From a virus (taxonomy: Duplodnaviria > Heunggongvirae > Uroviricota > Caudoviricetes): 47,976 nucleotides of DNA. The stretch lies in the IMG/VR virus record IMGVR_UViG_2512047041_000006; one strand, given 5' to 3'. The position numbers were made by a program, and so were the translations under genes. Each line of letters opens with the position of its first letter. The stretch's first letter is position 1. Shown piece after piece: positions 1,422 to 19,657 of the stretch. The notes beneath the pieces were generated by a model. The model was not told where the DNA came from. It worked only from the letters and a program-made list of their open reading frames with translations, and searched no databases.

Positions 1422-2876
1422 TTAAAAATCAGCCTGACTTGGGATCAGTTTTTGCCAGATAACTGAAACGTATTTTGCCTGGTAACGGGCGTCATCAAGT
1501 GCATTATGGCGCTCACCTTCGAATGGAATAGCCGTTCTGGCATCGAAGTCTATGGCTTTCCCCAGCTCAACGATTGTGCGTACATCGCGATCGTTGTAGT
1601 AACGCCACGGGCAGGGGATCCCCTGCCGTTCGTATGAACGGCGCAAAATCGTGTTGTCGAAGTTGGCTCCATTTCCCCAAACCTGAACAAAAAATTCACC
1701 GGAGTTTTCGTCGATAAATTCCCGCAATTGTAACAGTGCATCATCTAACGGGATTTCATCGGTCATAATGGCAGATTGCGCTTCGCGTGATTGCTTAAGC
1801 CACCATTTAATGGTGTCCCGATCAATGACTCCGCCAGCAGTTTCCAGATCGATAGTCTTACTAAATTCCGGTCCCATATCTCCGGTTTGCGGATCGAAAA
1901 ATATTGCACCTATTGAGATGATCGGGGCATCAGGATTTTTTCCCATGGTTTCAAGGTCGATCATTAGATGGTCACACGTCCTGCTGGTGGATGTGATTTC
2001 GTGATGACCGTTCACCTTAATTGAGCGATCTGCCGTCTCGCCAGTTTCATTATCGCTATCGTGATGCTGATTGCCGCCAGTGTTCTCCTTGTGTGGATGT
2101 TCAGCGCCTTCCATTTCCTCCGGATCATCTTCCTGAACTTCAACCTGATACTCTTCATCGAATGTTTCCTGGTATGTTGCGTCGCCCATCACCGCGCCAC
2201 AATCAGGGCAGTTGCCGCCGCCGGTCTGACCGCAGGCGGTGCAGACTTTTTCCACTTCCTGTTGCGCCACTGGTTCAGGCTGTTTCGTTTCTGGCTCGTT
2301 TTGTAACGCATTTGGGCTGTTTTGTTCCGCTTTTTGGTAGTTCCGTTCCGATTCATGCTGATTCTGGTTCACAGAATCGCGGGTCTGGATCCCCTTAACC
2401 CATTTCGGATCATTCGGGTCACTAATCCCTTCAACAAATTCACCACGTGATGCAGCAAGCAACTTATCGGCGTCAGGCTGGCTGATATTGGCTGCCTGCA
2501 TAATTTTGTTTACTTCGTCAGCGGTAACTTTTATCGGCTCTGGTTGTTCTGAATCTTCAGCGGTATCTACATTTTGCGGTAAGCCCGTGTATGTGCCATT
2601 TTTTCGGGCAAAATATTCTTCTTTTGTGATTTCAGTGGCGCCAGCAGCCAGTGCCTTATCCAGACCAGAAAGTTTGTTTGCGCGACCGCATTTTTCTCCG
2701 TCCTTATCTGCGAAGAGGAAATAGAACGGCCCCTCACGCTCTACAGATGGTTCAGCTTCCGGCGCGGTTTCATTTTTTGGGATATCAGATACCTCAGTTT
2801 CCACTGCATCAGTTTGTGTTTCTGATGACTGGAGAACATCAACAGTGCCCAGGTCTGTTTCTTCATTCTCAAACAC
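1422..2876 (-). CDS. DEDDh (DnaQ-like) 3'-5' exonuclease domain protein with zinc ribbon
   Basis: 484 aa; C-terminal motifs MIDLETMG / WGNGANFD / [10 protein letters not shown] typical of DEDDh exonucleases; CTACGQ...CPDCG zinc-ribbon-like motif; acidic low-complexity N-terminal half. Confidence 0.7.
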
Positions 2877-3894
2877 GCCCTTTGTCGTCAGGTATTCGCA
2901 GATATATTTTGTTCAGTGCTATGGGATCTTTGTGAATGTCGATCGGACGCTCACGGACAAGGCCAAAAATAGTTTGGCGGTCGTAGCGAAGGGCATCAGG
3001 CTGTTTGCGCATTGATGCCGAGATACGCTTCCAGTCTTCGCGGTCGTTGTCGATAACTTCATTTTTTGCCCAGCGATGGATGCTGCCGTCAATGTTTCCG
3101 GCATCCACATCACCAGGCCAGAGAGCGTAGGCCAGTTCGTCATCCAGTGTTTTCCATGTCTGCTTGTATTCGCGATGAATGGCAGCAATGACCGGGCTGA
3201 TTTTTCCTGTTGAATTTTCACTGTGCTGTTGATTGGTTCTGGCGCGGGCGAGATCAATAACAGACGTGTATTTTCCGGTTTCCTTACGTTCACCTTCGCG
3301 ACGTTTTTTCCAGATGCGCATCTCTGCCTGAATTTCGGGCCATTTGGCACCAGGCTTACATTTATGCTTAACCCACCCGATGGCATGCAGCTTAAGCTCC
3401 GGATACATGGCGTTAACTTCTGGCATTTTCATCAACGCTTCAACGATATGTCCGTCGAATGTTGCCATGTCTTCCTGCAACAATTCCTGTGCGCTAATAA
3501 CCATATCAACGGTGATGTTTTCACATGTGTCGAACTTAACCATGACAGCGTTCTGTACTTCAGGGGCCAGCTTGTCAAAAGTGACGTTCATCGGATCGGA
3601 TTCAGTCTCAACCGGGACAAAGGAAGCAGACTCCTCATCCCAGCGGTTTTCCTGCATATATTCAGCATCCCAGGAATCGAGGGCAGGGCGGGGTATGCCG
3701 GGTTTATCCTCACAGACAATAAATTTATAAGCGCAGTCCTGAGCTGCAGGGAATTGCTCCAGAAATTGCCAATGAAATTTTGCGCGTGCGCGACGCTCAT
3801 CACCAGCTTCAATGGCAGTGGCCACCGCAACAGCGCTATCTTCTTTTATGGCCTGTTCATCAGGAATAGCAGCGCAAATAAAGACCTTACTCAT
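2869..3894 (-). CDS. Hypothetical early-left operon protein
   Basis: 341-aa ORF, translationally coupled (8-nt overlap) to the exonuclease gene; no family recognised. Confidence 0.5.
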
Positions 3895-13280: not shown

Positions 13281-13966
13281 ATAACCAGTATTTACAGTTT
13301 GTTCGTGAGCAACTCATGATTGCCACCGCCGATTTGAGTGGATCAACAAAAGGGCAGCTTGAGGCCTGGCAGGAGAATGCCATGTTTGATACAGGGCGTT
13401 ACAGGCGTAAAAAAATCCGGTACCGCGATGAAGTGACTGGAAAAATGATAACGCGGGATAATCCACCAATCCCGGGAAAGCAATCGCTGGCGAAGGGGGT
13501 GTCAATTCCTCTCGTCAGTCCGGTTGAGTTTTCGACATCATCGTGGCGGCGGGCTGTTCTGTCTCTTGAAGAACATCATAAAGCCTGGTTGTTGTGGTGT
13601 TACAGCGGGAGTATTTGTTGGGAATATCAGATCGCGATAACGCAGTGGGTGTGGAATGAATTTAAAACCCGGTACGGCACCAGAAAAATTGCAGGGAAAA
13701 CGCAGGAGCGCGTGAAGAAGTTGATCTGGCTGGCGGCACAGGATGTCAGAGGATGGATTACCGGGTGTGAGGTCTACCAGAGACAGGAGCTTGCCAGACT
13801 GTGTGGAGTTAAGCCTGATAACTGGAGCCATAATTATGCGAACTACTGGCGTGAGATGTGCGATATTTTTAAGAGTCTCGATAGAGAATCTGTGATTTGC
13901 ACCGTGAAAATAAGAGCGCAACAAAAAGCGACTTTTTCACGACGAGATATTGCAAAAGTCAATTAA
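13277..13966 (+). CDS. Late-gene antitermination protein Q-like
   Basis: 229-aa ORF directly after rusA and directly before a strong bidirectional terminator hairpin (tR'-like); assignment mainly positional. Confidence 0.55.
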   Translation: MNNQYLQFVREQLMIATADLSGSTKGQLEAWQENAMFDTGRYRRKKIRYRDEVTGKMITRDNPPIPGKQSLAKGVSIPLVSPVEFSTSSWRRAVLSLEEHHKAWLLWCYSGSICWEYQIAITQWVWNEFKTRYGTRKIAGKTQERVKKLIWLAAQDVRGWITGCEVYQRQELARLCGVKPDNWSHNYANYWREMCDIFKSLDRESVICTVKIRAQQKATFSRRDIAKVN

Positions 13967-14027
13967 ATAGCGTACGTTTCGTATAAATCTGATATTTTGC
14001 CGATTTTGTACGCGATGGCAAAGTAAG

Positions 14028-14057
14028 AAAAAAAACTGCCGTCAGGCGGTTTTTTTT
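14028..14057 (+). terminator. tR'-like intrinsic terminator downstream of Q
   Basis: A8-CTGCC-GTCA-GGCGG-T8 hairpin flanked by A and T tracts (bidirectional). Confidence 0.65.
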
Positions 14058-14179
14058 ATGCCCAAAATCGCGTCAGTACAGTAAACACGCTGGTGGTTGC
14101 GAATACGGGTCTTTCAGCTTGCTGGCTTTTTCGACAAGAGTTATTGGTATGTCACGTTAACCGGAAAAAGGAAAAAGAC

Positions 14180-14377
14180 ATGCTAAAACAGCAGGATATG
14201 ACAGAAACCGCCAGAGTGGTGTTTAATGAATTAAGCGTTACCGAACCGGCGACAGTCGGGGAGATAGCGCAGAATACTTACCTTTCACGCGAACGCTGCC
14301 AGTTAATACTGACCCAGCTGGTTATGGCGGGTCTGGCAGACTATCAGTTCGGTTGTTACAGACGCCTTCAGTCCTGA
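14180..14377 (+). CDS. Small winged-helix DNA-binding protein
   Basis: 65-aa product from ATG 14180; ORF track extends it to 14093 from a GTG. Confidence 0.45.
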   Translation: MLKQQDMTETARVVFNELSVTEPATVGEIAQNTYLSRERCQLILTQLVMAGLADYQFGCYRRLQS

Positions 14378-14387
14378 AGGCTTTTTT
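14364..14387 (+). terminator. Rho-independent terminator
   Basis: GCCTTCA-GTCC-TGAAGGC hairpin followed by TTTTTT; overlaps stop of wHTH gene. Confidence 0.55.
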
Positions 14388-14403
14388 ATTTGTGGTAAAT
14401 GGG

Positions 14404-14434
14404 CGGCTGGTGGGTGTTAGGGGCACCCACCAGC
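14404..14434. promoter_or_regulatory. Perfect 12-bp-arm inverted repeat (candidate operator) upstream of methyltransferase
   Basis: GGCTGGTGGGTG-N7-CACCCACCAGCC; each arm carries the Chi octamer GCTGGTGG, one per strand. Confidence 0.4.
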
Positions 14435-14527
14435 CATCTGCTCATGCGTTGGGTTCACAAGCAAACCTCAGGCCCACTGCTTTGCGCAAAAGCAGAATGA
14501 GCCTATCAGAGACAGGCTTAATGATCC

Positions 14528-15577
14528 ATGCTTAATACTGTAAAAATATCCAGTTGTGAGTTAATCAACGCCGACTGCCTGGAATTTATCCGGTCGTTAC
14601 CCGAAAATTCTGTTGACCTGATAGTCACGGACCCGCCGTACTTTAAAGTGAAGCCTGAGGGCTGGGATAACCAGTGGAAGGGCGACGATGATTACCTGAA
14701 GTGGCTGGACCAGTGTCTGGCGCAGTTCTGGCGGGTGCTGAAACCTGTCGGAAGTCTTTACCTGTTCTGTGGTCATCGCCTGGCATCTGATATCGAAATC
14801 ATGATGCGTGAACGCTTCAGTGTGCTGAACCATATTATCTGGGCGAAGCCGTCCGGACGCTGGAACGGATGCAACAAGGAAAGCCTGCGGGCGTATTTCC
14901 CCGCCACAGAGCGCATTCTGTTCGCGGAACATTATCAGGGGCCGTATCGTCCGAAAGATGCCGGGTATGCGGCGAAGGGCAGTGCACTGAAACAGCATGT
15001 GATGGCCCCGCTGATTTCTTACTTTCGTGATGCGCGCGCTGCCCTGGGGATAACGGCAAAACAGATTGCAGATGCCACAGGAAAGAAAAACATGGTGTCG
15101 CACTGGTTCAGTGCCAGTCAGTGGCAGCTACCGAACGAAAGCGATTATCTGAAATTACAGTCGCTGTTTGCCCGGGTGGCAGAAGAGAAACATCAGCGCG
15201 GTGAACTGGAAAAGCCCCACCACCAGCTGGTGGATACGTATACGTCACTGAACCGGCAGTATGTGGAGCTGCAGAGTGAATATAAGCATCTGCGGCGGTA
15301 TTTTGGTGTGACGGCGCAGGTGCCGTACACGGATGTGTGGACACATAAACCGGTGCAGTTCTATCCCGGGAAACATCCGTGCGAAAAACCGGCAGAAATG
15401 CTGCAGCAGATAATCAGCGCAAGCAGTCGTCCGGGTGACCTGGTTGCAGATTTTTTTATGGGCTCAGGTTCAACGGTAAAAGCGGCACTGGCGCTTGGGC
15501 GTCGTGCGATTGGCGTTGAACTGGAGACCGGACGTTTTGAGCAGACAGTCAGGGAAGTTCAGGATTTAATCGTTTGA
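14528..15577 (+). CDS. DNA methyltransferase, N6-adenine/N4-cytosine (beta-class), orphan
   Basis: 349 aa; catalytic DPPY motif near N-terminus (LIVTDPPYF) and AdoMet motif FFMGSGST near C-terminus; no adjacent restriction endonuclease gene. Confidence 0.85.
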   Translation: MLNTVKISSCELINADCLEFIRSLPENSVDLIVTDPPYFKVKPEGWDNQWKGDDDYLKWLDQCLAQFWRVLKPVGSLYLFCGHRLASDIEIMMRERFSVLNHIIWAKPSGRWNGCNKESLRAYFPATERILFAEHYQGPYRPKDAGYAAKGSALKQHVMAPLISYFRDARAALGITAKQIADATGKKNMVSHWFSASQWQLPNESDYLKLQSLFARVAEEKHQRGELEKPHHQLVDTYTSLNRQYVELQSEYKHLRRYFGVTAQVPYTDVWTHKPVQFYPGKHPCEKPAEMLQQIISASSRPGDLVADFFMGSGSTVKAALALGRRAIGVELETGRFEQTVREVQDLIV

Positions 15578-15626
15578 AACGGATGAGATTGCAGAATTAA
15601 TTACGCACCATTATTATTCTGCTCCC

Positions 15627-15702
15627 GGCCCTTTAGCTCAGTGGTGAGAGCGAGCGACTCATAATCGCCAGGTCGCTGGTTCAAATCCAGCAAGGGCCAC
15701 CA
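15627..15702 (+). tRNA. ileZ: tRNA-Ile2 (anticodon CAT, lysidine type; ileX/ileZ-like)
   Basis: 76 nt with encoded CCA; full cloverleaf fits; near-identical to E. coli ileX as recalled. Confidence 0.85.
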
Positions 15703-15709
15703 TCACATA

Positions 15710-15786
15710 CCGCCATTAGCTCATCAGGAAAGAGCGCCAGCTTTCGAAGCTGGTTGCGCGGAGTTCGGGTCCCCGAAGGCGGTCCA
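15710..15786 (+). tRNA. tRNA-Arg-like (anticodon TCG), atypical
   Basis: 77 nt cloverleaf with encoded CCA, anticodon loop TTTCGAA; one acceptor-stem and one T-stem mismatch, T-loop TTCGGGT, discriminator T - possibly degenerate. Confidence 0.5.
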
Positions 15787-15799
15787 TTATCTGTATCCT

Positions 15800-15876
15800 G
15801 CGTTGTTAGCTCAGCCGGACAGAGCAATTGCCTTCTAAGCAATCGGTCACTGGTTCGAATCCAGTACAACGCGCCA
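15800..15876 (+). tRNA. tRNA-Arg (anticodon TCT, argU-like)
   Basis: 77 nt; canonical cloverleaf, T-loop TTCGAAT, anticodon loop CTTCTAA, encoded CCA. Confidence 0.85.
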
Positions 15877-15891
15877 CACTTATTTTCCCTG

Positions 15892-15914
15892 GCTCGCTTT
15901 TGCGGGCTTTTTTT
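15892..15914 (+). terminator. Rho-independent terminator after tRNA cluster
   Basis: GCTCGC-TTTT-GCGGGC hairpin followed by T7. Confidence 0.5.
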
Positions 15915-15920
15915 AAATGT

Positions 15921-16133
15921 CTCACAATTCAGGCGGTTGACTGTTGTCTGGTTTGCGGGGAGTTTGTTAAAAGAAACTGGCATGGTGAATCCCCCTGTGC
16001 GGAGGGGCAATCAGCGAGTAGGTATATGGGATAATCGCGGATTCAGGTGCTGGTACTGAATTCACCGGGAGGCACCCGGCACCATGCAATGGCACATAGC
16101 GCCACTCTCCAGCCCCTCTCCGGAGGGGCTTTT
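15921..16133 (+). repeat. Noncoding repeat module, copy A
   Basis: Shares ordered conserved blocks with copy B: CTCACAATTCAG, GTTGAC, TTGTTAAAA, GCATGGTGAATCCCCCTG-GCGGAGGGGC, TCACCGGGAGGCACCCGGCACCATG, AGCCCCTCTCCGGAGGGGCTTT. Confidence 0.6.
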
Positions 16134-16388
16134 CTGTGCCGGATACATCACAGTTTCTGGAACCTTAGGTACTACAGTATCAGTCAGGGTGCTATATTTT
16201 CAGATGTGATGAAAGCCTGTCAGCAGGCAGGGCGTATCGGAAATGACCCAGTAGAGAAAACGTTGACTCAGATACCGGTGCTGAGTTACCGGGAAACCGG
16301 CATCACATGACCGCTATCCTTCCAGGCCCATCCGCTCCGGTGGGCCTTTTTACTGCAGAAAACAGGTTCCCCGTTAAATGCTATGTTG

Positions 16389-16620
16389 CTCACAATTCAG
16401 TAAGTTGACAGTTGCCTGTCAGACTGGGCATTTGTTAAAAAAATTTCGCATGGTGAATCCCCCTGAGCGGAGGGGCGACTGGTGACGGTATAATCTCTGA
16501 TTATCAAAACGAGAATGACGCGGGTTTAGTGGCACCGGGCTGAACTCACCGGGAGGCACCCGGCACCATGTGCATGATGATACAGATACGCGGCTTTAGC
16601 CCCTCTCCGGAGGGGCTTTC
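16389..16620 (+). repeat. Noncoding repeat module, copy B
   Basis: Second copy 468 bp downstream of copy A; contains a perfect TATAAT (in GGTATAATCTCT) and the same three GC-rich hairpins. Confidence 0.6.
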
Positions 16621-16850
16621 TTATGGACAAAAAAAGCCCGCGCTGGGAGACGCGGGCGGCAAGGAATAAACAATAAAACGTGAAGTAATATTTCAGCTGG
16701 CGAATAATACCCCATAGTAATCACTCTGCGCAACTGCGCGGTCTTTTTCGAATTGCGGGCTGTAGTCTCCCTTCTGCCATTGTCCTGTAACTTCCGGACT
16801 TCAGCCTGCTCCTTATCTGACTCACAACATTATCCCGCCCGGGAGGATTC

Positions 16851-18704
16851 ATGGCATTTAAACACTATGACGTGGTCAGGGCGGCATCGCCGTCAGACCT
16901 TGCGAAACGACTGACACAAAAACTGAAGGAGGGCTGGCAGCCGTTTGGTAGTCCGGTGGCCATAACCCCTTATACCCTGATGCAGGCGATTGCAGCAGAA
17001 GGTGATGTGGTCGTCAGTGGTGCAACTGAGCCGGAGTGGTACTACGTCATCGTACTGGCCGGGCAATCCAATGCCATGGCTTACGGTGAAGGGCTTCCGC
17101 TTCCGGATTCATACGATGCGCCCCATCCGCGCATTAAGCAACTGGCCCGTCGTAACACAGTGACTCCCGGTGGTGAAGTATGCGTATTTAACGACATCAT
17201 TCCTGCTGACCATTGTCTGCATGATGTTCAGGATATGAGTACGATTAACCATCCCCGGGCTGACCTGAGCAAAGGGCAGTACGGCTGTGTCGGACAGGGC
17301 TTACATATTGCCAAAAAACTGCTTCCGTATATCCCTAATAATGCGGGGATCCTGCTGGTACCATGCTGTCGTGGTGGTTCGGCATTCACCCAGGGCACGG
17401 AGGGGACATTCAGCGAGTCCACGGGAGCCAGTCAGGATTCGGCTCGCTGGGGAGTGGGTAAGCCGTTATATCAGGATCTGCTTTTCCGCACGAAGGCAGC
17501 ATTGCAGAAAAACCCGAAAAACGTTTTGCTGGCGATATGCTGGATGCAGGGGGAATTCGATATGACGAATGCCAGTTACGCCCAGCAGCCAGCAGCATTT
17601 CTTGCAATGGTACAGCAGTTCCGTGCTGACCTTGCCGGGCTGGCGGCGCAGTGTCACGGTGGAAGTCCGGCATCAGTCCCCTGGATTTGTGGCGACACGA
17701 CATACGCGTGGAAACAAGAACACGGTACGCAATATGAAGTGGTATATGGTGCATATAAAGGTAAAGAATCCCAGCAGATTTATTTTGTTCCCTTTATGAC
17801 CGATGGTAGCGGAGTTAATACACCGACAAACAACCCGTCAGAAGATCCTGATATTGCCGGGTCTGGTTATTACGGTTCGGCATCCCGAACGAACAAAAAC
17901 TGGGTATCATCAAATCGCCCGACGCATTTCAGCTCATGGGCGCGTCGTGGCATTATTCCCGATCGTATGGCAACTGCTATTCTGAACGTAGCCGGTCGCA
18001 CCTTAGCCTTCATTAGTGGTAAGGCACCGGAAATCAAAGCCTCGCCCGGCGGCGACACGCCATCGGGGCCGTCTGAAGATGCATCCATACGCACAATCTC
18101 CCTGTTGCCGACAGCCGGAGACGCTGCTGCGCAGGGCTGGAGCATTAAGAATGGCGGAATTCAGTTGTCAGATGGTGTATTTAAGATCACCAAGCAGAGC
18201 AATAAAGCCTGGTCCCTGACGCGCCCGGTGGATGACGCAGTCTCCCTGCTGACACGGGGTGGCAGACTGAGCTGTAAGTTTCGACTGTCAGGCGCACTGA
18301 CCAACAACCAGTTCGGTCTGGGAATTTATCTGTATACCGATGTAGCGTTACCTGACGTCGTGGCGATGACCGGGACTGGTAACCCGTTCCTGATGTCGTT
18401 CTTCACCCAGACCACAGACGGCAAACTGAATCTGATGCATCACAAGAAAGCAGGAAACACAAAGTTGGGCGAGTTCGGGAATTACAGTAACGACTGGCAG
18501 ACGCTGGAGCTGGTGTTCACCGCCGGCAGTGCCACGGTTACTCCGAAACTGAATGGAGTGGCTGGCCCGGCATTCCAGGTCATAAAAGACAGTCTGACAC
18601 TGGGGCTGAATGCGCTGACGCTGACGGATATTACCAAAAATGCAGCGTATGGCGTTGAGATAGAAAGTCTGGTGCTGGAGATAAATGCACCGGCATCATC
18701 ATAA
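16851..18704 (+). CDS. NanS-p-like sialate O-acetylesterase (DUF1737 + SGNH/SASA esterase)
   Basis: 617 aa; SGNH motif VLAGQSNAMAYGEG; N-terminal DUF1737-like segment; position between tRNA cluster and holin as in Stx-phage late regions. Confidence 0.72.
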   Translation: MAFKHYDVVRAASPSDLAKRLTQKLKEGWQPFGSPVAITPYTLMQAIAAEGDVVVSGATEPEWYYVIVLAGQSNAMAYGEGLPLPDSYDAPHPRIKQLARRNTVTPGGEVCVFNDIIPADHCLHDVQDMSTINHPRADLSKGQYGCVGQGLHIAKKLLPYIPNNAGILLVPCCRGGSAFTQGTEGTFSESTGASQDSARWGVGKPLYQDLLFRTKAALQKNPKNVLLAICWMQGEFDMTNASYAQQPAAFLAMVQQFRADLAGLAAQCHGGSPASVPWICGDTTYAWKQEHGTQYEVVYGAYKGKESQQIYFVPFMTDGSGVNTPTNNPSEDPDIAGSGYYGSASRTNKNWVSSNRPTHFSSWARRGIIPDRMATAILNVAGRTLAFISGKAPEIKASPGGDTPSGPSEDASIRTISLLPTAGDAAAQGWSIKNGGIQLSDGVFKITKQSNKAWSLTRPVDDAVSLLTRGGRLSCKFRLSGALTNNQFGLGIYLYTDVALPDVVAMTGTGNPFLMSFFTQTTDGKLNLMHHKKAGNTKLGEFGNYSNDWQTLELVFTAGSATVTPKLNGVAGPAFQVIKDSLTLGLNALTLTDITKNAAYGVEIESLVLEINAPASS

Positions 18705-18789
18705 AAAGTGAGCCAGCCAAATGGAAGGTATCGTTAAACTCACCGGTAGTGTCAGTGGGTCGTCTGAGATGCCTGCATGAGTTATCAGA

Positions 18790-18819
18790 GCCATCAGTAC
18801 TTAACTGGTGGCTTTTTTT
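18790..18819 (+). terminator. Terminator hairpin immediately upstream of holin gene
   Basis: GCCATCAGT-ACTTA-ACTGGTGGC stem-loop followed by TTTTTTT. Confidence 0.5.
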
Positions 18820-18854
18820 ATTGTTGTCAGCTTCCGGATAACGGGAGACGGGGT

Positions 18855-19070
18855 ATGTACCAGATGGAAAAAATCACAACAGGTGTGTCATACACCACGT
18901 CAGCGGTGGGAACGGGCTACTGGTTCCTGCAGTTGCTGGACAGGGTTTCCCCGTCTCAGTGGGCGGCAATAGGCGTGCTGGGGAGTCTGCTGTTTGGGCT
19001 GCTGACATATCTGACTAACCTGTATTTCAAAATCAGAGAGGACCGTCGTAAGGCTGCACGGGGAGAGTAA
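18855..19070 (+). CDS. S: Holin, pinholin class (S21-like), dual-start motif
   Basis: 71 aa beginning MYQMEK (two Met starts); two TM segments; C-terminus [22 protein letters not shown] matches phage 21 S as recalled; GGAG SD. Confidence 0.8.
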
Positions 19071-19074
19071 TTCA

Positions 19075-19419
19075 ATGACTCAAAACTATGAACTGATTGT
19101 GAAAGGGATCCGCAATTTTGAGAATAAAGTTACGGTAACTTTAGCGTTACGGGACAAAAAACGCTTTGACGGTGAAATTTTTGACCTGGACATCTCGCTG
19201 GACCGTGTTGAAGGTGCCGCGCTGGAGTTTTATGAGGCAGCAGCCAGAAGGAGCATCAGACAGGTCTTCCTGGATGTTGCTGCCGGGTTATGTGAAGGGG
19301 ATGAGCAGTCGCCGGAAAAGCGCCCCGTAATTTTAGAGGCGCAGGATGTGTTGATAACCTACAGAGGAAAACTACCGGGAATAATTACGGGTTCTCTGAA
19401 GAGTCCGCCGAAATGGTAA
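19075..19419 (+). CDS. Hypothetical protein between holin and endolysin
   Basis: 114-aa ORF, GGGGAG SD; protein-like composition. Confidence 0.45.
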   Translation: MTQNYELIVKGIRNFENKVTVTLALRDKKRFDGEIFDLDISLDRVEGAALEFYEAAARRSIRQVFLDVAAGLCEGDEQSPEKRPVILEAQDVLITYRGKLPGIITGSLKSPPKW

Positions 19420-19657
19420 TTTTACCAGCATATTTTTCATCCAGTAATACAGCAAGCCGCCTGAAAGAGTCTTGTTGTTCCTGAGACCATTTGGGATTGC
19501 ATGATTCAAACTGGATTGATGCCAGCGTTGATTGCATCTGTTCCCTTGGAATTGAGAATGCCAGATATGAGAAGGCGACGGTAAGGGTATTCACGTCTTC
19601 CCGAAGCCTGGAAATGCTGTCGAGCAACTCCTGTAGAGAAATGGTGTTATTGTCCAT
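19385..19657 (-). CDS. Hypothetical protein, antisense orientation within lysis cassette
   Basis: 90-aa ORF with GAGGA SD 8 nt upstream of ATG; convergent with 19075-19419 and overlapping it by 35 nt. Confidence 0.4.
   Translation of the reverse strand: MDNNTISLQELLDSISRLREDVNTLTVAFSYLAFSIPREQMQSTLASIQFESCNPKWSQEQQDSFRRLAVLLDEKYAGKITISADSSENP

Follow-up and report, generated by a model that had tools for sequence, protein, structure and literature searches.

Genes and features of the locus

The subject of this report is an interval of approximately 1 kb (positions 15877-16850, hereafter 'the gap') in IMG/VR record IMGVR_UViG_2512047041_000006, a stretch of 47,976 nucleotides that we call the window and that represents an Escherichia coli lambdoid prophage. 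We consider it highly probable that the gap is a cassette of four small RNA (sRNA) genes, three of which (units A, M and B) lie head to tail on the plus strand and the fourth on the minus strand, and that it carries no protein gene. The gap sequence is 100% identical to many complete genomes, including that of avian pathogenic E. coli (APEC) O18. Of 5426 complete E. coli genomes, 352 contain at least 80% of it and 2869 contain parts.

The surrounding gene order is as given in an earlier note made from the sequence alone. Reading along the plus strand, Q (PF06323; 13277-13966) is followed by a terminator-like, tR'-like site (14038-14050), an N6/N4 DNA methylase gene (14528-15577), a tRNA-Ile2(CAT)/Arg/Arg block (15627-15876), the gap, and an esterase gene with SASA, DUF1737 and DUF6645 domains (16851-18704). 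A P21-type holin, DUF1327/YdfR and a lysozyme lie 3' of the esterase, in that order. An intrinsic terminator recognized by a terminator scan (15891-15914, plus strand; GGCTCGCTTTTGCGGGCT followed by seven T residues) closes the tRNA block and forms the left edge of what is described below as a cargo slot.

Three units of the STnc100 family

The earlier note described the gap as a tandem duplication in which two hairpin-rich modules are separated by a unique spacer. The two copies, here units A and B, do exist: they share direct-repeat families of 88 nt (80% identity), 31 nt (97%) and 22 nt (100%) whose members lie 468-487 nt apart, and the copies are approximately 72-81% identical overall. The middle segment is not unique. 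It forms a third, divergent unit (M) of the same family, and the locus is a three-unit array.

Units A and B belong to Rfam family STnc100 (RF02076; gathering score (GA) 47 bits). Both match the full model (positions 1-206) above this threshold, unit A with 136.3 bits (E=7e-31; 15951-16141) and unit B with 165.4 bits (E=2e-38; 16419-16628). The earlier note had offered three functional options, namely sRNA genes, processed RNAs or attenuators. Membership in STnc100 supports the first of these, given that members of this family are Hfq-bound and verified by Northern blotting in enterohaemorrhagic E. coli (EHEC) and enteropathogenic E. coli (EPEC). The genomic location likewise corresponds to that of STnc100, in the lambdoid late region between Q and the tRNAs on one side and the esterase and lysis genes on the other. 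The novelty that the note implied does not hold, because both the family and its position have already been described.

The minimum-free-energy folds of A, M and B are alike and conform to the STnc100 architecture, each with pairing elements P1, P2, P4 and P5, a linker and a terminator. In the shared fold, P1 closes a junction with P2, a variable hairpin, P4 and P5, after which come the single-stranded linker and the terminator hairpin. The three GC-rich hairpins named in the earlier note are indeed present in both copies, and they prove to be helices of this conserved fold: P2 (CCCCU/AGGGG in the STnc100 consensus), P5 (CCGGG/CCCGG) and the terminator.

Covariation in this structure is seen in an alignment of 14 members drawn from the window, Stx1 and Stx2 phages (Stx, Shiga toxin), stx-negative phages, Escherichia ruysiae, an Enterobacter and PasD2, an sRNA of EPEC. 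Here, 91% of the cells are paired and 14 of the 34 pairs show changes in both partners, a level that 500 shuffles never reached; slid controls were 38-52% paired.

Unit A corresponds to a predicted sRNA gene of ~155 nt (15980-16137, plus strand) in which P1 is formed by GCAUGGUG and CACCAUGC. P2, the variable hairpin, P4 and P5 follow, and the linker AAUGGCACAUAGCGCCACUCUCC, which ends in CACUCUCC, precedes a terminator at 16111-16130. E. coli ECMA0423 has a single unit, which shares 98% identity with unit A. A further relative is present in prophage PP6 of EPEC E2348/69 (1600-3151 of that locus), where ISEc13 interrupts an STnc100 unit of the A type. At its 3' end, the PP6 unit has 138 nt that are 100% identical to window positions 15995-16132, and an intact antisense sRNA of the EcOnc42 type directly follows.

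Unit B is predicted to encode an sRNA of ~175 nt (16448-16624, plus strand) with the linker UGCAUGAUGAUACAGAUACGCGGCUUU and a terminator at 16598-16617. Its identity is 92% with the unit of KH16-043, a Stx2a phage, and 85% with that of phage 933W, and the 933W and Stx1a alleles align only with the first ~131 nt of the unit B RNA.

Outside E. coli, E. ruysiae carries a strong STnc100 unit (594-799 of its locus) with a weak second one (33.8 bits; 1437-1616) ~640 nt downstream. Judged from sequence, multi-unit loci with a divergent member exist outside E. coli too. A scan for a strict P1-P2 motif pattern returned 6 loci, a number that says little on taxonomic range because the scan used one genome per species and a strict pattern.

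Unit M and the open reading frame within it

Unit M (16204-16352, plus strand) is predicted to yield a divergent STnc100-like sRNA of ~147 nt comprising P1 (AUGUGAUG/CAUCACAU), P2, P4, P5, the linker GACCGCUAUCCUUCC and a terminator at 16324-16347. Its fold has a z-score of -3.1, and none of 200 shuffles was as stable. Compared with GCAUGGUG/CACCAUGC, the P1 strands of unit M carry double-sided changes that keep the pairing, and the P2 stem differs on both sides between the two known M alleles. On the basis of these changes in P1 and P2, we regard unit M as a structured relative of its neighbours and not as a spacer. It is present in 672 of the 5426 complete E. coli genomes (~12%), in two alleles, and in five phage records, none of which are Stx phages.

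The earlier note found no plausible protein gene in the gap, and we concur. Searches of the ORFs (open reading frames) in the gap against Pfam gave no match. Two ORFs that overlie the sRNA units, at 16047-16310 (plus strand) and 16419-16559 (minus strand), match PHROG 23557 and PHROG 24488, respectively, and these entries are probably artefacts of automatic ORF calling on RNA genes. On these grounds we rejected protein coding in the gap.

Unit M contains a 33-codon frame, which occupies 16209-16310 and not 16214-16315 as previously given. One could propose that unit M encodes a small protein, either this 33-amino-acid product or a 55-amino-acid form (PHROG 23557), or that it is a dual-function RNA. 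The ORF is intact in both diverged alleles and matches phrog_23557 with E=4e-19, and some STnc100 copies of EHEC strain EDL933 have ribosome footprints, with RCV values of up to 3.2 (PMC5331693). However, PHROGs are built from automatic ORF calls on the same DNA, and therefore the match is not independent evidence. The ATG of the 55-amino-acid form is absent from the window, where ATA is found instead, and the shorter ORF has no Shine-Dalgarno sequence, no Pfam match, and an AUG that lies within helix P1. Moreover, 14 codons differ non-synonymously between the M alleles versus 5 synonymously, and the last 25 codons show no change at all, synonymous sites included, a sign that constraint acts on the nucleotide sequence. 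We consider a coding function for unit M to be very improbable.

The convergent minus-strand gene

A partner overlooked in the earlier note is encoded on the opposite strand. This convergent sRNA gene of ~182-194 nt (16629-16822, minus strand) ends, five bases past the U tail of unit B, with a terminator (16657-16636). A promoter scan places a sigma-70-like promoter (ATGCCA-17-GATAAT; 9 of 12 matches) at 16829-16857 on the minus strand, where it overlaps the start codon and ribosome-binding site (RBS) of the esterase gene. The promoter is kept in 7 loci, but the esterase RBS shares those bases. The RNA is antisense to the leader of the late esterase transcript.

The gene is a homologue of E2348C_1409.E2348C_1408.IGR, an EPEC sRNA known from RIL-seq, and of the EHEC RNAs EcOnc42/21/08. 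The match to the EPEC gene extends over the whole RNA of ~182 nt, with 90% identity for the 5' part and 95% for the 3' part, and takes in both the terminator and the seed region CCUUGCC. The gene is also allelic to those of the anti-sRNAs AsxR and AgvB, which share its promoter-proximal body and likewise converge on an STnc100 unit, whereas the 3' part that carries seed and terminator has been swapped. Relative to the 933W locus, the 5' part is 90% identical and the 3' ~100 nt only 41%. The Rfam models for the 53-62-nt 3' RNAs of AsxR (RF02703) and AgvB (RF02702) score 88 bits in 933W and 56.6 bits in a Stx1a phage at the corresponding site, and gave no match at E<=1 in 13500-19500 of the window. 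Given that unit B and its convergent partner each share 5' parts with their relatives and differ in their 3' parts, both look modular, with a conserved 5' scaffold joined to an exchangeable 3' seed and terminator part.

A perfect 13-nt inverted repeat (GCGGGCTTTTTTT at 15902-15914 and AAAAAAAGCCCGC at 16629-16641) flanks the whole three-unit array. One arm lies in the tRNA terminator and the other in the terminator of the minus-strand sRNA. The repeat may be a coincidence of two terminators or a recombination substrate.

Position relative to stx

The earlier note viewed the region as a Stx-phage-type late region without toxin genes, in which the noncoding modules take the place of stx, and suggested a comparison with Stx phages. 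We made this comparison with Stx2 phages 933W and KH16-043, and the general description holds, in that these phages carry stx2AB between the same tRNA block and a downstream RNA unit. Their alignment with the window breaks off at 15918, where the tRNA terminator ends, and resumes at 16390, the start of the upstream block of unit B. Between these breakpoints are stx2AB in the Stx2 phages and units A and M in the window, so that A and M (15919-16389) hold the exact stx2AB slot. The earlier claim is true of A and M because of where the breakpoints fall, and it fails for unit B, which the Stx phages also carry downstream of stx. Units A and M would thus occupy the cargo ('moron') slot that holds stx2AB in Stx2 phages, and, by sequence comparison, unit B and the antisense RNA make up a resident dyad that Stx phages possess too.

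Other phages carry related arrangements at this site. In 933W and a Stx2a phage, an STnc100 RNA lies 75 nt past stx2B and is followed by AsxR on the minus strand. A Stx1a phage has STnc100 and then an AgvB-like RNA, and the stx-negative phage phi296 has a single unit at the same place. An 888-bp contig of Xanthomonas pisi DSM 18956 (Contig_80) scores 207.7 bits for STnc100 and 88.1 bits for AsxR, exactly as 933W does, and most likely is E. coli Stx2-phage DNA contaminating that assembly.

Upstream of the tRNA block, a sub-threshold match to Rfam STnc370 (43.8 bits; GA 54) at 14023-14098 on the minus strand overlaps a bidirectional terminator (14038-14058, plus strand) that closely follows Q and is probably tR'. 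This site could give rise to a short pR'-tR' RNA comparable to StxS, the terminated late RNA of Stx phages.

Starts, promoters and terminators

The putative transcription starts of the plus-strand units are G15980 (A), ~16204 (M) and G16448 (B), which we assign by homology with the 5' end of PasD. The PasD end (GCAUGGUG) has been mapped by RNA-seq and Northern blotting, and it falls in the same register. In each unit, a TGn-extended -10-like element is located ~6-7 nt before the putative start: TGtTAAAAG in A (15965-15973), TGcTATATT in M (16190-16198) and TGtTAAAAA in B (16433-16441), all on the plus strand. The motif TTTGTTAAAA is kept in 12 of the 14 family members. The element of unit M, a putative promoter, is invariant in the M alleles of phage PhiR5_2, E. 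coli SCEC020023 and phage vB_EcoS-640R1 (85-90% diverged).

The elements of A and B lie in upstream blocks (15921-15979 and 16389-16447, plus strand; repeat family D1) that start with CTCACAATTCAG and share a conserved CTCACAATTCAG..GTTGAC segment. The TTGACT (A) and TTGACA (B) sequences in these blocks are unlikely to serve as -35 elements, being ~24-25 bp from any -10-like hexamer. The perfect TATAAT that the earlier note reported in copy B exists (16488-16493), but it was rejected as a promoter: it has no -35 element, is uncalled by the promoter scan, and forms one arm of the variable hairpin in the RNA, and the Stx2a allele has a different pairing sequence in its place.

Both upstream blocks begin with CUCACA (15921-15926 and 16389-16394), the reported common target site of PasD, which is complementary to the PasD seed UGUGAG. 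These sites lie upstream of the putative starts, and their agreement with the PasD target motif may be coincidental.

Several observations weigh against the view that the gap encodes discrete, functional sRNAs. A consensus promoter scan called no canonical sigma-70 promoter on the plus strand, and for this reason the plus-strand starts are a matter of inference, resting on PasD homology and the conserved TGn-TAAAA motif. Interruptions in the U tails of A and B (UUUUCUG and UUUCUUAU) may weaken termination and Hfq binding. Unit M scores 30.1 bits against the full RF02076 model (16180-16353; E=4e-5 when searched alone), which is below the threshold, and the folding z-scores of A and B taken alone are modest (-1.9 and -1.7). 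Discrete Hfq-associated expression is known only for relatives (EcOnc27/sRNA103, STnc100_4 and PasD). Finally, STnc100 is among the most frequently annotated bacterial sRNAs and yet is without an assigned function, target or phenotype (PMC9029176), and no mechanism is known for the effects on fimZ and espA that have been reported for sRNA103 (PMC7873438).

The lack of a called plus-strand promoter also fits a reading in which the units are cut by RNase E or RNase III from a long Q-dependent late transcript or from tRNA-operon read-through, yielding sRNAs derived from a 3' untranslated region or spacer mainly on induction. The weak U tails of A and B would permit the necessary read-through, making processing possible mainly for these two units, and PasA, another EPEC sRNA, has been reported as processed from a longer transcript. 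However, the PasD 5' end is the first base of helix P1, and the same register recurs 7 nt past a conserved TGn-TAAAA or TATATT motif in all three units. PasD and the EDL933 STnc100 copies are abundant without induction, and a ChIP-exo (chromatin immunoprecipitation with exonuclease treatment) study in Salmonella reported RpoD at STnc100 copies (PMC10794520). Processing is therefore, in our assessment, an unlikely origin for these RNAs.

Proposed function

We favour a model in which each plus-strand unit has its own weak promoter of the extended -10 type and a conserved, highly structured 5' domain, where P1 closes a multi-branch junction. The single-stranded linkers (~15-27 nt) differ between units and are likely seeds by analogy with PasD, and the terminator U tail is a likely Hfq site. 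Unit B and the convergent minus-strand gene would form a '+/- dyad' as in EHEC prophages. In the lysogen, the RNAs would be made from their own promoters and would pair in trans, with Hfq, through the differing 3' linkers. Because these linkers differ, the host would gain several extra regulators. On induction, Q-modified RNA polymerase from pR' would pass the tRNA-block terminator and the three unit terminators to reach the esterase and lysis genes, and the minus-strand RNA would be antisense to the late leader read by this polymerase.

Alternatively, the principal role of the hairpins might be in cis, as a series of terminators or attenuators. In the lysogen they would keep transcription that starts at the tRNA promoter, or at others upstream, from entering the esterase and lysis genes; only Q-modified polymerase would get through, and any short RNAs would arise as by-products. 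The locus is inside the Q-dependent late operon, four plus-strand terminator-like sites lie within 730 bp before the esterase, and ten such sites in all are observed in 15580-16900 versus 1.3 expected. StxS provides a precedent for a terminated RNA of the late operon that arises as a by-product of antitermination control (PMC7547250). However, a terminator needs just one hairpin and a U tract, whereas these units maintain a multi-helix 5' domain of ~110 nt that covaries across Escherichia and Enterobacter, and a stack of cis terminators is insufficient because it leaves this domain unexplained. In addition, relatives are abundant and Hfq-bound in uninduced cells, and phi296 and the Stx phages manage with a single unit. 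We judge a mainly cis-acting role to be quite unlikely. The cis and trans roles are not mutually exclusive, and attenuation or read-through is compatible with our preferred trans-acting sRNA model as a secondary role.

Origin and spread of the array

The arrangement of A, M, B and the antisense gene recurs in phage PhiR5_2 at 78% identity, with M as the best-conserved part (~100 nt nearly invariant). An A-M-B array is also present in prophages of a different type that carry iraM rather than the esterase after it, and this occurrence in a different backbone suggests that the array moves as a unit. In E. coli SCEC020023 and phage vB_EcoS-640R1, the order is Q, tRNA-Ile, DUF3927, the array (STnc100, M, STnc100), iraM on the minus strand, DUF1737 and holin. 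The array was probably assembled by recombination between prophages with different unit alleles and not by recent duplication in place, because units A and B are nearer to single units elsewhere (98% and 92%) than to each other (72-81%).

This mosaic history raises the prospect that A and M are decaying leftovers of recombination without function, and that only the resident dyad of unit B and the antisense RNA matters. A and B are just 72-81% identical, each occurs elsewhere as a single unit, the locus is highly mosaic, and in PP6 of EPEC an insertion sequence disrupts an A-type unit with no obvious consequence. Against such decay, the whole A-M-B array persists in PhiR5_2 at 78% identity with its helices kept by compensatory changes, and M is its best-conserved part. 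The array has also been transferred to the IraM-type backbone, and M is found in two alleles in 12% of complete E. coli genomes. We consider loss of function in A and M decidedly improbable.

A more ambitious hypothesis, which we put forward tentatively and regard as doubtful, combines these observations. A-M-B plus the antisense gene might constitute a mobile 'sRNA cargo cassette' that is an alternative to stx2AB in the late-operon slot. Unit M would be an unannotated STnc100-like subfamily, transcribed from a strong extended -10 promoter of its own and bearing an unvarying C/U-rich seed (UAUCCUUCC) that resembles an anti-Shine-Dalgarno sequence, and both dyad partners would evolve by swapping 3' seed and terminator parts on a fixed 5' scaffold. 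If true, this would mean that lambdoid prophages diversify the post-transcriptional networks of their hosts via modular recombination.

Significance

What is already known is a family of the STnc100/EcOnc27/PasD type at a described position. To this the present analysis makes modest additions, namely the triple tandem array, the sub-threshold unit M, the breakpoints of the cargo slot and the 3' module swapping in both dyad partners. Our search of the literature found no description of an A-M-B triple array, and this triple arrangement alone looks undescribed.

The 1-kb gap is left unannotated or is given spurious hypothetical proteins in RefSeq and phage records, and a label as sRNA genes is due; unit M, being below the threshold, would escape standard annotation. 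The cassette adjoins the most important virulence cargo slot of E. coli phages, and in one study no other genomic feature predicted haemolytic uraemic syndrome as strongly as did variation in the homologous RNA that lies downstream of stx2a (PMC12711010). The stx-negative array is present in ~12% of complete E. coli genomes, including extraintestinal pathogenic E. coli, APEC and enteroaggregative E. coli, and carries three different putative seeds. It offers a safe system for learning what these RNAs do and how the swapping of seed modules yields new regulators.

Comparison with known systems

The closest relatives are STnc100 RNAs of EHEC, including EcOnc27/sRNA103. Strain EDL933 transcribes 11 STnc100 copies, one of which has been verified by Northern blotting (PMC5331693). 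The copy located ~75 nt downstream of stx2B overlaps the Hfq-binding, Northern-verified sRNA EcOnc27/sRNA103 (PMC12370729; PMC12711010; PMC7873438). These loci share with the one described here their fold, their placement between the tRNAs or stx and the nanS-p esterase gene, and their kind of convergent partner. However, they have one unit where the window has three in tandem, and the linkers here differ from those of the 933W and Stx1a alleles.

PasD1 and PasD2 of EPEC E2348/69 (corresponding to EcOnc13) are 172-173 nt long, abundant, encoded upstream of an esterase gene, and found in chimeras recovered with Hfq by RIL-seq (PMC8550237). A recent paper identified them as structurally related to STnc100 (Zhu, Shabalina and Storz 2026). 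We confirm that PasD matches the STnc100 model below the threshold, with 41 bits. As here, the PasD genes precede a SASA esterase, and their RNAs of ~172 nt start with GCAUGGUGAAUCC and have a related fold. Identity with the present units is ~56-70% (56-58% globally over the longer sequence). A blastn comparison of 15877-16850 with the PasD2 locus gave no alignment in the gap, only the esterase aligning, and none of the linkers of A, M and B contains the PasD seed UGUGAG (PMC8550237, supplement). According to Zhu et al. (2026), copies of PasA and PasD lie dispersed and not in tandem, whereas the array here is tandem.

Other phage-borne sRNAs were considered and set aside. PasA and PasC, sought between esterase and holin, have no match in the window, and the sequence of sRNA-17 (193 nt) from meningitis E. 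coli K1, to which APEC O18 is related, as given in the supplement of the paper that reported it, is likewise absent. The 3' end of the esterase gene does carry AUAGAAAGU-CUGGUGCUGGA-GAUAAAUGCA (18660-18689), a listed PasA target site in EPEC, and a strong plus-strand terminator follows the gene (18790-18820).

StxS, the pR'-tR' terminated RNA of Stx phages, is Hfq-binding, belongs to the same late operon and 'bookends' the cargo slot on its other side. It differs in being a by-product of termination at tR', upstream of the tRNAs, and is unrelated to the present units in sequence and structure. In a review of data of Tree et al. 2014, stxAB is portrayed as 'bookended' by StxS and the AsxR/EcOnc27 dyad, and at least eight Sakai prophages are said to carry dyads of Hfq-binding sRNAs in the stretch from the late promoter to the lysis genes (PMC7873438). 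The AsxR and AgvB dyads resemble the one described here in that a minus-strand RNA converges on an STnc100 unit at the same place, and the promoter-proximal ~135 nt are 90% identical to the 933W AsxR locus. In contrast, the 3' ~100 nt, with seed and terminator, are unrelated (41-47%), and the allele in the window is of the EcOnc42/21/08 type.

Beyond phages, the array invites comparison with OmrA/OmrB and PrrF1/PrrF2, which likewise are adjacent paralogous sRNA genes that have a shared, partly diverged scaffold and their own promoters and terminators, as would be the case here. Those are core-genome pairs that have known regulators and shared seeds, whereas the array described here is phage-borne, comprises three units and carries different putative seeds.

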